From IMG/VR virus record IMGVR_UViG_3300046314_000711: a stretch of 64,000 bases of DNA. One strand, 5' to 3'. Source of the stretch: a virus. This document shows positions 3,327-12,472 of the stretch, one piece after another. The translations under genes were made by a program, and so were the position numbers. Within the stretch, counting starts at the first letter, position 1; each line of letters opens with the position of its first letter. Below the pieces are notes generated by a model. It searched no databases, had not been told where the DNA came from, and worked only from the letters and a program-made list of their open reading frames with translations.

Positions 3327-3560
3327 TCATATTCAAATATCGAGTAAGCGAGGAGTGCAACCCAACTGAAGACGGCCACTGCATAGCCGAGCCGGACGCG
3401 GTATTTGAATATGATTATCTATGCGACGATAGTGACTAGGGCGCTTCGGGGTCTTCGACAATAGCATAGAATCATATTCAAATATCGAGTAAGCGAGGAG
3501 TGCAACCCAACTGAAGACGGCCACTGCATAGCCGAGCCGGACGCGGTATTTGAATATGAT
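3327..3560 (+). repeat. Exact tandem duplication of a CATAT-type cassette (3327-3415 = 3472-3560)
   Basis: Identical sequence; segment 3399-3480 is also repeated at 4212-4293. Confidence 0.9.
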
Positions 3561-3680
3561 AAAGGTGAATGGGTTAGGTATGTCACTGCCATAAGAACGC
3601 GGCATGCTGAGTTGGTTCAATTCCAACAACTTTTGTTCAATATGAATCCATGTGACAATAGCGCGCAACGATAGCATGGA

Positions 3681-3784
3681 ATCATATCAAAGGATAATCG
3701 CAGGTAATGGCAAGTTGGTAGGCCATCCAGTTAATTCTGGCGCTGTAGTCGGAGGTTCGAATCCTTCTTATTCTTTGATATGAT
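3681..3784 (+). ncRNA. tRNA-like RNA inside a CATAT-type closing stem
   Basis: ATCATATCAAAGGA/TTCTTTGATATGAT stem; T-arm GGAGG-TTCGAAT-CCTTC; 6-nt anticodon-position loop; no CCA. Confidence 0.6.
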
Positions 3785-4412
3785 CGATGAGTGTTCGAGT
3801 AGCCGTGATGTTACTCACAGGGCAAGTAATCATCGTATGACATCTCGGAAAGACGGGCTTCATATTTAAGTACTCCTTATAGGATCGTGCATTGGTAGTT
3901 CAAGCAGGGGAAGTTTGTAGTACTTAAATATGGTAAGTCGGTTGTTTGTGGGTCATAGAGAATTGCAGTAAGTTGGTTTAGCGACCTTCTGAAGATTCTC
4001 AACCGGGGCTGCTACTCCAAAGGTAGATACTGGGACTCGGAATCTCAGATACAAACAACAATTCATAGCAAAGGATGTTGCAACATTCTAGCGAGGTCGC
4101 AGGCAGTAATACAGCCCCTTCCGTTCGATTCGGAGTTATGGATGACTTGGCATATTCAAATATCGTAGGTGATGATAGTACGCTGGTTACGGTGAACTTC
4201 CCTGATCTGAACGGTATTTGAATATGATTATCTATGCGACGATAGTGACTAGGGCGCTTCGGGGTCTTCGACAATAGCATAGAATCATATTCATCCACAA
4301 GTCTCTTGCAACGGGGATTACAACAGGGGAATTAACCCTAAACGTGTTGCAGCGTTGACCTCTGGTAAGGAGGTATAGCTTGAATTAACAGGGTGGATGA
4401 ATATGATACTTT

Positions 4413-4495
4413 GGAGAAGGAAAGCTGATGGCTTCAGCACCGAGTCTGTAAAACTCGTCCTTCGGGGAGAGGGTCGGAACCTCACTTCTCCACCA
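4413..4495 (+). tRNA. tRNA-Tyr(GTA), atypical D/T loops
   Basis: GGAGAAG/CTTCTCC-ACCA acceptor; CGAGT-CTGTAAA-ACTCG anticodon arm; long variable arm. Confidence 0.8.
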
Positions 4496-4696
4496 AGTTA
4501 TGACGCAACGTGAACAGCAAAGTTCTTAATGTCATGTGCAATGGCGATAGTAGAGACTATCCAACGGGTGGTGAGTACGCTCCACATCATGTATTACTAG
4601 AAATAGTTTTCACATGTAGTAAAAGTTATGTTATAATTACTACATGTGAAATTGGTCTAATTAACCAAAATTACAATCGAGAGTAATTAACTCGAT

Positions 4697-4826
4697 GACC
4701 CTTGCATAGTTTATTCGGCAAAACGTAAGAAATGTTGGTTCGATTCCAACCTATGAACTCTGTTCGTAGTCGTCTAATGGCTAAGACGCAGGAGAGGGTG
4801 GTTCGAAGCCACCTGCAAATAGGGTC
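4697..4826 (+). ncRNA. Double-elbow tRNA mimic (two D arms, two T arms, no anticodon)
   Basis: D arm 4707-4724; T arm GTTGG-TTCGATT-CCAAC; closed acceptor-like hairpin CTATGAAC-TCT-GTTCGTAG; D arm CGTCT...AGACG; T arm GGTGG-TTCGAAG-CCACC; outer GACCCTTGCA/TGCAAATAGGGTC stem. Confidence 0.7.
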
Positions 4827-5026
4827 GCAAATTTGTCAGTAAAGAGAGTAATTCTGAGTTCTGCAGGACTTGCATTAGGTAGTGATACCCGCGCCGCGAT
4901 GCTGGCGGATAGAATTACTCTCTTTAGTGATTGATTACAAATTAAAGTGTATTTTATAGGTTCGATTCCTAAAGGGCGACGGTCGATAATTTCAAAGTTA
5001 CTCTAAGTGGTTTAAGTACACTTTAA

Positions 5027-5340
5027 TTTGTTAGTCAGTAGGTAGGCTTAGGAGCAGCCACCCTTTAATAAGTGAGACGAAGGCACGTTGAAACATTGTA
5101 ATCTGGTGTAGGGCAGCAATCCAGATGAAAGCACAATAGGATTTTTGGTAATGTTAGATAACAAACTCAAAAGGTTTGCTGACCCAAAAATCACAGTACG
5201 GTAACTTCGCTAGTTACTAAAGCAATGGGATAGCTTCCCTGAGTGCGAGTTTCGCGTGAGCCACTTGGTTAAGTACAGAGGCACCCCAGAAATGGTAAGG
5301 CTGACGTTCTCTTTGGCGTAATAGCAAGCTAACTAACAAA
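5027..5340 (+). ncRNA. RNA containing a 23S rRNA L11-binding/GTPase-associated-centre (H43-H44) mimic with a ~245-nt insert
   Basis: AGGTAGGCTTAGGAGCAGCCACCCTTTAA (5040-5068) and GCGTAATAGC (5316-5325), closed by TTTGTTAGTCAG/CTAACTAACAAA. Confidence 0.8.
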
Positions 5341-10127: not shown

Positions 10128-10231
10128 TAGTGGGTCGAGAGTTTGTAACTTGATTAAGTTCGGGGCGATCTTGATTTATAGTCCGAGCGTAAAACTGTGG
10201 GATCTTTAGTCCCGCAGATGTAAGCGAGCAA

Positions 10232-10612
10232 TTATCCTTGTTCAGCTATATATTTAGCTATTGTTTCGGTCGAGGCATCCCCAGTAGAACAAACAAAATA
10301 ACCAGATGACTAAAATATACAATTCTTCCAAAAATGTTTTCTCAGTTCGGAGCTGTGTAAGAACCAAACTTTTGCAGTAGTCGTTTGTTTCAATAATCTG
10401 ACAATTTGTGAAACTGACACATTTGGCGAGTAATCAACCAGTAAATGGATATGATCTTTGTCCACTTCCATTACTTGTATTTTGAAATCGGCTGTTTGAT
10501 TTGTTAGTATTGTATCTTTGATGGTCTGTATTAGTTGTGGCTTAGACAGAAGTTTCTTTCTATACTTGACGCAGAACACAATATGGCTTTTGAGTGTAGC
10601 TTTTCTCCCCAT
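10232..10612 (-). pseudogene. tnpA: Y1 HUH transposase TnpA interrupted by an in-frame TAG
   Basis: HIVFCVKYRK, DHIHLL; F-TAG-SSGYFVCSTG...IAKYIAEQG continues in frame past the stop at 10310-12. Confidence 0.85.
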
Positions 10613-10681
10613 TTTGATGGTATATTTTCAATTTTGTATAAATATATTTATGTCAATCAAATCAACTGCATAAATAATAGT

Positions 10682-11956
10682 ATGAAACAGCTGCTCGCTT
10701 ACAAATATAGGATTTACCCAACAGAAGACCAACAAATCCTTCTGAGTAAAACCTTTGGCTGTAAACGGGTAATATTCAACCATTACCTAAATGTGCAACA
10801 AACAAATTTCAAGAACAAAGAAAAGCACCTGAGCAACTATGACATCAATAGAGACATTACTAAACTGAAGGATGAGAAGGACTGGTTACGGGAAGTAGAT
10901 TCTATTGCATTGCAGATGGCAGCAGAAGACCTATCGTTGGCATATGACAATTTCTTCAAATCAACTACTGGTAAGAGAAAGGGTCCGAAGATAGCGGCTC
11001 CTAAGTTCAAAACCAAGAATTCTCGGCAGTCGTATAGAACTCGTGGGGTTCGTATCAATGAAAATGGTTCTTTACAAATACCAAAACTAAAAGCAGTAGA
11101 AGCAGTCATCCATAGAGAAATTCCAGGTGATTCGACAATCAAATCAACAACCATATCAAAGAATACGGATGGAAGATATTACGCATCGATTTTAGTTGAA
11201 ACAGAAGTAGCATTAAAGCCAACGACTGGTAGAGAAGTTGGTTGCGATGTGGGTCTAAAAGATTTACTCATCACTTCAGATGGGATAAAATTCAAAAGAC
11301 CGAATGATTTGCTAAACATTGTGAAAACAAAACAATTGTTGAAGGCAAAACAAAAGCAGTTTGCAAGAACTGATAAAGGCAGTGAAAATCATGAATCAAT
11401 TCGACTCCAAGTAGCAAGATTGTACTCAAAGATCACAAGACAACGAAATGAATATTATCATCTAGTATCAAACTACTTAGTCGATAATTATGATTCCATC
11501 TACGTTGAAGATTTGTCGAGTAAGAATATGCTACAAAACAGGAAGTTGAGTAGAGCAATTCACGAGGCAGCATGGGCCACACTGACTGGAATGATTTCAT
11601 ACAAATCAAATCAGGCAGGTAGGACATATCATCGAATTAGTAGATGGTATCCGAGCAGTAAGACTTGTAGTTCATGCAATTACAAACTTGAAAAGCTCGA
11701 TCTTGGAACCCGAGAATGGACTTGTCCTAACTGTGGAGTCTTTCACGATCGGGATCTAAATGCAGCAAAGAATATACTTCGTGTTGGTCAGATTGACTGC
11801 TACGAAGAGGTAATAGAGTCGCAAGCAACAGGCGATTTGGAATTAAAAATTCCATTGGCCCTACAGAAAATGACTAGTAAAATCGAGAGATCTGGCATAT
11901 GCTTGTCAGTTGGTTATGGGAGTGGGCAAGCTGCACGATCTTTAGTCGTGCAGTAG
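10682..11956 (+). CDS. tnpB: RNA-guided endonuclease TnpB
   Basis: AYKYRIYP N-terminus; RuvC motifs GCDVG, YVEDL, DRDLNAA; CxxC...CxxC zinc finger. Confidence 0.95.
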   Translation: MKQLLAYKYRIYPTEDQQILLSKTFGCKRVIFNHYLNVQQTNFKNKEKHLSNYDINRDITKLKDEKDWLREVDSIALQMAAEDLSLAYDNFFKSTTGKRKGPKIAAPKFKTKNSRQSYRTRGVRINENGSLQIPKLKAVEAVIHREIPGDSTIKSTTISKNTDGRYYASILVETEVALKPTTGREVGCDVGLKDLLITSDGIKFKRPNDLLNIVKTKQLLKAKQKQFARTDKGSENHESIRLQVARLYSKITRQRNEYYHLVSNYLVDNYDSIYVEDLSSKNMLQNRKLSRAIHEAAWATLTGMISYKSNQAGRTYHRISRWYPSSKTCSSCNYKLEKLDLGTREWTCPNCGVFHDRDLNAAKNILRVGQIDCYEEVIESQATGDLELKIPLALQKMTSKIERSGICLSVGYGSGQAARSLVVQ

Positions 11957-12049
11957 TTGACAGTGGTTCGAACAAAAGCGGAAGCAGCCAGGCGAACTCA
12001 TAGAGTTTGGATAGTGTTGGGACGGCAGAAATTCCCACTACCTATTGTC

Positions 12050-12185
12050 ATCATATAAAAATGTACTGTCCTACCCAAAGGGTGGCAGACAGTGGTTGGA
12101 AGGATCTGCTCGTTATCTATCTGATGGATGCACTCGGGTTGCACCGATGCCAAAGGACGATGATTGTAGTACATTTTTATATGAT
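12050..12185 (+). ncRNA. CATAT-type cassette
   Basis: ATCATATAAAAATGTACT/AGTACATTTTTATATGAT perfect 18-bp stem. Confidence 0.7.
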
Positions 12186-12306
12186 TAGTTGGTGATGTAA
12201 TTGGTAAACATAAGCGGTTAGAGGAATTTATCTTCGAGAAGGACGCCAAAACCTTTCCTCGTAAACCGCTGGCAAAGTGTGGGTTCGAGCCCCATCCAAC
12301 TTTCCA
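12186..12306 (+). ncRNA. tRNA chassis with long extended anticodon arm
   Basis: AGTTGG/CCAACT-TTCCA; D arm; AGCGGTT...AACCGCT extended stem; GTGGG-TTCGAGC-CCCAT. Confidence 0.65.
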
Positions 12307-12472
12307 TATAAAAGTTAGTTCCCATTTGGAGGTAGAACACTGCGTAATCCCAGTATAGCGCATTGGTCGAGCTAACTTTTATATTGTCCATATTTGAGTG
12401 TATTGCTATCGCACAAACAGTATTCCGGAAAACGGCCCACAAAGCTTAGCTGGGTAATACACTCAAATATGG
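12305..12472 (+). ncRNA. Two adjacent CATAT-type cassettes (12305-12386, 12388-12472)
   Basis: ATATAAAAGTTAGTTC/GAGCTAACTTTTATAT and CCATATTTGAGTGTATT/AATACACTCAAATATGG stems. Confidence 0.7.

Follow-up and report, generated by a model that had tools for sequence, protein, structure and literature searches.

Double-stranded stalks cut by ribonuclease (RNase) III are a familiar device for the separation of co-transcribed RNAs, the described cases being the helices flanking 16S and 23S rRNA, the sites in the early RNA of phage T7 and the RNase III step in the maturation of the phage T4 tRNA cluster. Small RNAs which are not tRNAs also occur in phage tRNA gene clusters, such as the stable RNAs species 1 and 2 of T4 (rnaC, rnaD) and the stable RNAs of T5, while small RNAs adjacent to tRNAs include the E. 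coli 3'ETS-leuZ small RNA sponge and the tRNA-microRNA chimeras of herpesvirus MHV68. The homing endonuclease SegB is found in the tRNA cluster of T4 (PMC2330249). The present analysis concerns a stretch of 64,000 nucleotides (nt) of viral DNA (IMG/VR record IMGVR_UViG_3300046314_000711; hereafter the window), which is part of a giant phage known from freshwater metagenomes, and in particular the repeated hairpin units found in it, each made of an AU-rich closing stem around an interior. These units belong to a large and apparently phage-restricted family of RNA hairpins, found as punctuation in arrays of tRNA and tRNA-like genes; the family is apparently undescribed, having no Rfam model, and we could not find it described in the literature.

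The units resemble the known RNase III stalks in that a duplex of about two helical turns is formed by sequences flanking a stable RNA in a polycistronic transcript, between genes which need to be separated; they differ in that one near-constant stem serves repeatedly within a genome and recurs in more than 100 phages, in that the stem starts on the discriminator-CCA and encloses a short hypervariable insert rather than the main product, and in that cleavage is here putative. The T4 and T5 stable RNAs are likewise small non-tRNA RNAs co-transcribed within phage tRNA arrays, with free-standing endonuclease genes embedded; unlike the units, they are single conserved genes and not a repeated family with a constant stem and a variable interior. 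In the case of 3'ETS-leuZ and of the MHV68 chimeras, functional small RNAs are released beside a tRNA by tRNA-processing enzymes, a release which here is putative; neither has a shared closing stem or cassette-like diversity, whereas their mechanism and targets are known.

Of the 15 units listed in a preliminary description of the region, 14 have a closing stem of 15-25 bp according to a repeat search, an independent stem scan and RNAfold; the remaining one, 9798-9901, is decayed in its outer part and retains only an inner 10-bp stem (9804-9813 with 9885-9894). Two additional units, 4840-4926 and 4937-5031, bring the total in the window to at least 17 (Table 1). Stems of at least 15 bp number 24 in 3300-12500, compared to a mean of 1.9 in 15 dinucleotide shuffles and to 5 in a coding stretch of equal length. 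As the same description had it, the payloads are GC-richer and non-coding, and the inner half of the stem is variable yet complementary. The interiors measure 31-230 nt and have a GC content of 0.51 versus 0.27 in the arms; there is no + strand open reading frame (ORF) of at least 80 amino acids in 2013-6749; and the 331 stem positions comprise 307 Watson-Crick, 17 G-U, 2 A-C and 5 other pairs. The excess of G-U over A-C among these mismatches indicates that pairing is selected in the + strand RNA; indeed, neither a DNA palindrome nor a transcript of the opposite strand would yield this asymmetry. A search of Rfam returned tRNA matches only, none of them within any unit. Readings of the units as retrons, CRISPR repeats or terminators were rejected on anatomy, the repeats being inverted rather than direct and lacking a U-tract; no reverse transcriptase was seen among the 30 window ORFs scanned with Pfam, a scan outside which most small ORFs fall.

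Relatives, found via the neighbouring zinc-ribbon gene, carry the same type of stem within ordinary tRNA arrays, with the interiors exchanged. A degenerate two-arm pattern matches at least 120 uncultured viral contigs (estimated chance expectation below 1) versus only five small contigs of metagenome-assembled genomes in 596 Gb of prokaryote genomes, so that the family looks phage-only; among 50,697 deposited phages there was no unit-level match, a distant blastn search with 6440-6547 giving T-arm matches only, and no cultured carrier. An exact 17-mer of the commonest arm of the window gave ten single, unrelated matches in viral_contigs, about the chance level, and a metagenome scan for TCATATTCAAR pairs returned mostly unrelated palindromes and only a handful of family members. 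Metagenome copies with TCATATTCAARCACAYT bridge the TCATAT variant of the window and the family consensus.

The anatomy of the stem, drawn from 146 distinct foreign copies, is that of an AU-rich helix of 17-21 bp with the consensus (A)CCAUAUWRAARCAYAUU / ARURUGYUUYWAUAUGG(U). Its sequence hardly varies at positions 1-6 and 9-17; position 7 is either A-U or U-A, 75 of the 146 copies have an A-C mismatch at position 8 and 101 have a U-G pair at position 16, while positions 18-20 are variable and paired more often than with shuffled partners. The earlier statement that pairing rather than sequence is conserved is therefore not borne out as it stands, since the outer 10-17 nt are conserved in sequence in more than 100 phages and covariation is found in the inner part only. 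Mismatches in the foreign stems comprise 200 G-U versus 82 A-C; in an alignment of 50 foreign copies 95% of the cells pair, both sides change in 7 of 18 pairs, and the observed covariation score was reached in 0 of 500 shuffles. A covariance model of the stem built from foreign copies only (R1) recovers 11 units in the 64-kb window at E <= 0.01 (19-49 bits), four more weakly and nothing comparable elsewhere, the highest scores being those of 6468-6547 (49 bits) and of 9998-10125, 12050-12185 and 12387-12473 (30-37 bits), followed by the TCATAT group (19-24 bits); 10 of the 11 significant matches score better on the + strand. Relative to the consensus, the TCATATTCAA stems of the window carry compensated changes at positions 1, 8 and 12-17, and in a relative of unit 5465 a G>A change at 5529 makes the position-8 mismatch arise as C-A.

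The feature which best constrains the mechanism, missed by the preliminary description, is the docking of the units on tRNA ends. In the relatives, 104 of 147 units have an arm whose CCA coincides with the CCA end of an upstream tRNA called by ARAGORN, these tRNAs being of the kinds Lys-UUU, Gln, Leu, Glu and ten others, and in 49 units the 3' arm shares its final bases with the start of the following tRNA. In a sequence-free search for stems 3' of 1876 tRNAs, the stem started at the discriminator 157 times versus about 35 times at any one of the adjacent offsets, and ACCA is also the start of a few stems of unrelated sequence; as the discriminator start is common to unlike stem sequences, the shared trait is a helix which pairs the ACCA of the tRNA and its trailer with the leader of the next RNA. 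In the window, starts of the CCA type are found at 9798, 12305, 9996 (ACCA of a minihelix) and 6468 (CTA), and docked 3' ends at 12185 and 12472; in 12050-12584 a unit, a tRNA-like gene, two units and a tRNA follow one another with zero spacer, and the predicted fold keeps the modules separate.

The interiors behave as exchangeable cassettes. The 143 foreign interiors fall into 114 similarity clusters, and beside upstream tRNAs which are at least 99% identical the median identity of the interiors (0.46-0.52) is at the random level (0.50 for shuffles). Their orientation is fixed (88 plus-strand versus 0 minus-strand matches), compensatory changes are present within the few interior clusters, and the sense strand folds better than the antisense in 84 of the 114 clusters, with the reverse in 28; taken alone, the interiors are scarcely more stable than shuffles (mean z -0.4). 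Synteny with the relatives breaks at unit edges and CCA ends. The window interiors are mutually dissimilar, apart from the 3327/3471 duplicate, and in a relative of unit 4151 from an RNA run the arms are kept and the interior is rewritten, every change falling at 4178-4195; the interior of unit 5685 contains a 10-nt tandem repeat, of which a relative has one copy fewer, and unit 4840 is missing in one relative, where 4827 is joined to 4938 with six shared letters, CAAATT standing at both edges. A variant in a DNA run fuses two CCATATAAAA arms and drops 9797-12304, thereby losing two units, the TnpB gene and one tRNA-like gene. A tRNA-like interior, as in unit 3681-3784, where a T-arm lies at 3751 and an acceptor-like helix extends the closing stem, is seen in several window units, though it was rejected as a general rule, a T-arm being present in only 3 of the 143 short foreign interiors. 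The interiors show no significant complementarity to the rest of the window, for which reason an antisense or guide role was set aside, and a DNA inversion switch was discarded for lack of inverted interiors; the decoy or sponge library proposed at first is for its part speculative, the interiors having neither such complementarity nor a known family.

Transcription was assessed in the assembled contigs of three freshwater metatranscriptome runs, in which strand and true RNA ends are not readable. RNA-library contigs cover 2868-6339 at a summed depth of 30-640 and 9017-9282 at about 80-100; a 283-nt contig (X21 record 13, depth 99) matches 9019-9275, with pieces also in X22 and X23. The TnpB region 10246-11981 has depth 0 in all three RNA runs and is covered in a DNA run, and ORF 6774-7207 has near-zero RNA depth, whereas the zones without RNA cover in X21 (9812-10245 and most of 11982-12415) are not readable as silent. 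Bins containing units have a lower RNA-contig depth than the adjoining large RNAs, although this is a weak measure. The greatest depth in all three libraries (up to 640) is that of 2936-3326 and 5038-5471, structured RNAs without an Rfam match. An RNA contig of 227 nt without mismatches joins 2492 to 6007, omitting 3.5 kb, perhaps by a strain deletion or by an RNA-level event; the contig joints 9799/9605, 12490/12279 and 2492/6007 taken together do not, in our view, speak for RNA circles or splicing, and tandem tRNAs in relatives, foreign tRNAs or strain deletions fit best.

Six strong sigma-70-type promoters, all on the + strand, are found at 2213, 2305, 2509, 2706, 2900 and 4609. That at 2900-2928 sits upstream of the RNA of about 2936-3326 and of the first run of units, with no terminator-like site before 4600 and no terminators until the ORFs. 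The picture of a standard carrier stem with unrelated payloads drawn in the preliminary description is thus retained as regards the shared stem, RNA-level selection on the + strand, transcription and the swapping of interiors in relatives, and abandoned as regards the single long stable-RNA transcript, in view of the six promoters (2213-4637) and of the ORFs and silent TnpB gene which break up 6749-11956. Five of the promoters lie in tandem in 2213-2928, and upstream of each of three of these lies a unit of a second stem family (AGAGTTCTTTAAAAAGTT / AACTTTTTAAAAGATTCT; 2361-2510, 2567-2707 and 2764-2901), the 3' arm of which enters the -35 element TTGAC. Every copy of this second family also stands behind a promoter of its own, and unit 2361-2510 encloses, on a 29-bp extension, a core resembling a tRNA (acceptor GCGTCGT/ACGACGC, T-arm at 2458).

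We tentatively favour the view that the units are double-stranded processing stalks, probably cut by RNase III, which also carry swappable small RNAs. In this view the units are co-transcribed with their neighbours, and in the AU-rich stem of about 17-21 bp the trailer of the RNA on the 5' side pairs with the leader of the RNA on the 3' side; the resulting two-turn duplex would be cut by a double-strand-specific endonuclease, which we infer to be most plausibly the host RNase III. Once the stem is cut, exonucleases could shorten the upstream tRNA as far as its CCA, RNase P would set the other side, at the 3' edge of the unit, and the leftover would be a stem-capped small RNA, with an interior free for exchange between phages through recombination in the constant arms and a function, if any, of its own. 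The combination of strong promoters, no terminators and zero-length spacers implies that the array must be cut apart. Exonucleases working from the 3' end would be held up by any stable hairpin lying between two tRNAs, and one of 17-21 bp would halt them short of the upstream CCA, so that an endonuclease is needed; a duplex of about two helical turns is in the size class of the classic RNase III substrates, which is why processing stalks are preferred.

Several observations weigh against this view. RNase III substrates have roughly 20 bp or more of near-continuous duplex, compared to which the stems of the window (15-25 bp, some of them just 15-16 bp) and of the relatives (17-21 bp) lie in several cases at the low end. 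The contig 9019-9275 spans nearly the whole stem of unit 9017-9282, unlike the product of a mid-stem cut, and no cleavage site is seen in the assembled contigs, which carry neither strand nor true ends. Most window units start with TCATAT without a canonical tRNA upstream, the neighbours of all nine TCATAT units being other than canonical tRNAs. An RNase III gene was not found in a 99%-complete relative, so that a host enzyme must be assumed; a search for the Pfam RNase III domain PF14622 in the records of two relatives was negative, and no RNase III domain was found among the 30 scanned window ORFs. The sequence of the stem is, moreover, far more constant than the weak specificity of RNase III demands, and a near-invariant stem with a recurrent A-C at position 8 and U-G at position 16 suggests a sequence-specific partner.

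Such a partner is the core of an alternative which we consider unlikely, and in which a sequence-specific protein, be it a dedicated nuclease or an RNA-binding protein of phage or host, would use the constant stem as a handle, while the interiors would be the working parts (decoys, sponges or aptamer-like modules), in the manner of Y RNAs. It would account for the 17 near-invariant stem positions with their fixed A-C mismatch and fixed U-G in more than 100 contigs, for the wholesale replacement of interiors between close relatives with their orientation retained, for the compensatory changes within interior clusters and for the contig spanning nearly all of the 9017-9282 stem; however, the interiors are barely more structured than shuffles, they have no complementary targets within the window, and the low RNA-contig depth of unit-bearing bins, weak measure as it is, points the same way. 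The units share with Y RNAs and YrlA (Rfam RF02553), the partners of Ro60, a long end-pairing stem and a variable, sometimes tRNA-like module (3681-3784, 2361-2510), and the window holds a Ro-like DUF2828 gene, whose DUF2828/DUF7788 product is named 'RNA-binding protein' by RefSeq in vibriophages; unlike Y RNAs, the units are not matched by the Rfam Y-RNA models and most of their interiors are not tRNA-like, and the 99%-complete relative G002 has units and no homologue of the protein. The Y-RNA/Ro link was therefore rejected as a general explanation, the DUF2828 protein also lacking a sequence match in PDB. That gene (Ro60-like?) lies at 18404-19837, and a YqeY-like gene at 15243-15677.

In a related and equally doubtful version the stem would be an address tag, its fixed sequence and position-8 mismatch being read by a dedicated nuclease or binding protein which loads or releases a repertoire of small RNAs, exchanged as cassettes under diversifying selection; if true, the units would amount to an accessory arsenal made of RNA, with swappable modules docked on tRNA ends, which might be directed at host defences or at competitors, for instance.

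It is quite unlikely that the stems are instead uncut clamps or insulators, holding the ACCA end of the tRNA and the next leader so that the neighbours fold independently or mature in a set order, with RNase P, RNase E and exonucleases acting at the edges and the interior as filler. The exact start of the stem at the discriminator, shared by other stem sequences, would suit a clamp, as would the weakly structured and freely replaced interiors; RNase E prefers RN↓WUU, which CCAU↓AUU at the base of the stem resembles. Filler, on the other hand, would be expected to drift by point mutation, whereas the interiors are replaced outright beside 99%-identical tRNAs; insulation requires neither the narrow range of stem lengths nor the constancy of sequence, and interiors of 100-230 nt with GC-rich sub-helices look costly for the purpose.

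Very improbable, finally, is an action of the inverted repeats in DNA as miniature mobile elements or recombination sites (like miniature inverted-repeat transposable elements (MITEs) or integron attC sites) moving cassettes into tRNA 3' ends, because, for all the likeness in imperfect terminal inverted repeats (conserved at their ends and including a fixed mismatch) around a variable, cassette-like centre, and despite the presence/absence variants (4828-4937 with CAAATT on either side, and the loss of 9797-12304 between two CCATATAAAA arms) and the homing endonuclease and TnpB genes within the array, the canonical units sit at RNA gene boundaries of tRNA arrays without a direct target-site duplication (their flanks are inverted, ACCA...TGGT, the 6-nt direct repeat being limited to unit 4840), both the excess of G-U over A-C and the constant orientation of the interiors indicate selection on one transcribed strand, copies within one genome differ in content unlike MITE bursts, and no integrase or transposase was found among the scanned window ORFs except the orphan TnpB.

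Table 1. Hairpin units of the window and two strong promoters of the same region (R1, covariance model of the stem)
Feature	Position	Strand	Evidence
Promoter, sigma-70-like, TG-extended	2900..2928	+	TTGACA-17-GATAAT, 11/12 matches
Hairpin unit, stem TCATATTCAAATATCG..., 50-nt interior	3327..3414	+	R1 19.9 bits
Hairpin unit, exact duplicate of unit 3327 (interior 50/50 identical)	3471..3560	+	R1 22.6 bits
Hairpin unit, tRNA-like interior	3681..3784	+	R1 18.9 bits, E 0.01
Hairpin unit	3861..3932	+	R1 24.3 bits
Hairpin unit, stem in common with unit 3327, different interior	4151..4226	+	R1 21.2 bits
Hairpin unit, 94-nt multi-hairpin interior	4284..4407	+	R1 10.3 bits (marginal)
Second strong promoter, TG-extended; within a palindrome; feeds units 4840-6544	4609..4637	+	TTCACA-17-TATAAT
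Hairpin unit, different stem type (TAAAGAGAGTAATTCT)	4840..4926	+	Repeat search, RNAfold
Hairpin unit, T-arm-like hairpin immediately 3' of the 5' arm	4937..5031	+	R1 22.2 bits
Hairpin unit, 22-bp stem including 2 G-U pairs	5465..5539	+	R1 21.5 bits
Hairpin unit (ATAGTTGAATACATTG)	5685..5772	+	R1 12.9 bits (marginal)
Canonical member, directly 3' of tRNA-like gene 6366-6468 (CTA for CCA)	6468..6547	+	R1 49 bits, E 1e-10
Largest unit, 230-nt interior	9017..9282	+	Repeat search, RNAfold, RNA-library contig
Decayed unit, starts on CCA of 193-nt tRNA-like gene 9605-9797	9798..9901	+	R1 10 bits
Canonical member, 23-25-bp stem, starts on ACCA of 7-bp minihelix 9972-9999	9996..10127	+	R1 36 bits
Member, 3' arm ends at start of tRNA-like gene 12186-12304	12050..12185	+	R1 33 bits
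Member, starts on CCA of tRNA-like gene 12186-12304	12305..12386	+	R1 13.6 bits
Member, its terminal G residues also begin tRNA 12471-12584	12388..12472	+	R1 29.8 bits

The units lie in a region (about 2000-14800, + strand) with many RNA genes and very few ORFs, in which a LAGLIDADG endonuclease gene, the orphan TnpB gene (10661-11956) and a few small ORFs are embedded. Within 2458-19946 there are 17 T-arm motifs on the + strand, and almost none in the rest of the window; the tRNAs called in the region by ARAGORN and Rfam include several with unusual insertions. Insertions of 22-74 nt or longer, below the size of group I introns, are placed in or near the anticodon and D regions of the genes 6366-6468, 9605-9797, 12186-12304, 12471-12584 and 19866-19970. 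A repeated spacer hairpin (CTATGCGACGATAG...GACAATAGCATAG) precedes three TCATAT units on their 5' side (3415-3470, 3648-3680 and 4227-4283), the copies 3415-3470 and 4227-4283 being identical.

A likely type I hammerhead ribozyme occupies 6644-6744 (+), its core CUGAUGAG...CGAAAC being the sole match in the window versus 0.02 expected by chance; in the minimum-energy fold a three-way junction forms, stem III being ACUGUUGGG/CCAACAGU and the site GUA, and the predicted cut after 6730 would fall 18 nt 5' of the ATG of ORF 6749-7258, just before a GAGGA ribosome-binding site. The Rfam model Hammerhead_3 gives this candidate 18 bits only, under its threshold. RNA-repair genes are represented in the window by an Rnl1-type RNA ligase fragment (31894-32502) and a metallophosphoesterase (35377-36222); a tRNA with the anticodon CUA, of the amber suppressor type, lies at 25463-25536, and a RecA-like gene with a HINT (intein-like) insertion at 49915-51357. 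As to the phage itself, the NAD-dependent ligase of the window is about 33% identical to its counterparts in the jumbo phages XacN1 and Phosso. No deposited phage was matched by 3000-13000 in a megablast search, and viral_contigs yielded no relative of ORF 628-2013.

How the long tRNA arrays of large phages mature has barely been studied. A reusable stem starting on CCA in more than 100 uncultured phages would be a general punctuation signal for the stable-RNA operons of phages and a possible marker for their annotation, and the family offers a test case for the division of labour among RNase III, RNase P and exonucleases on tightly packed tRNAs. The window is unusually rich in this respect, with its at least 17 units and diversified stems in the vicinity of tRNA-like genes bearing unusual insertions, of genes for RNA repair and of a likely hammerhead ribozyme. 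If the interiors are functional, they would constitute a large unexplored pool of phage small RNAs, with a turnover resembling that of accessory genes.

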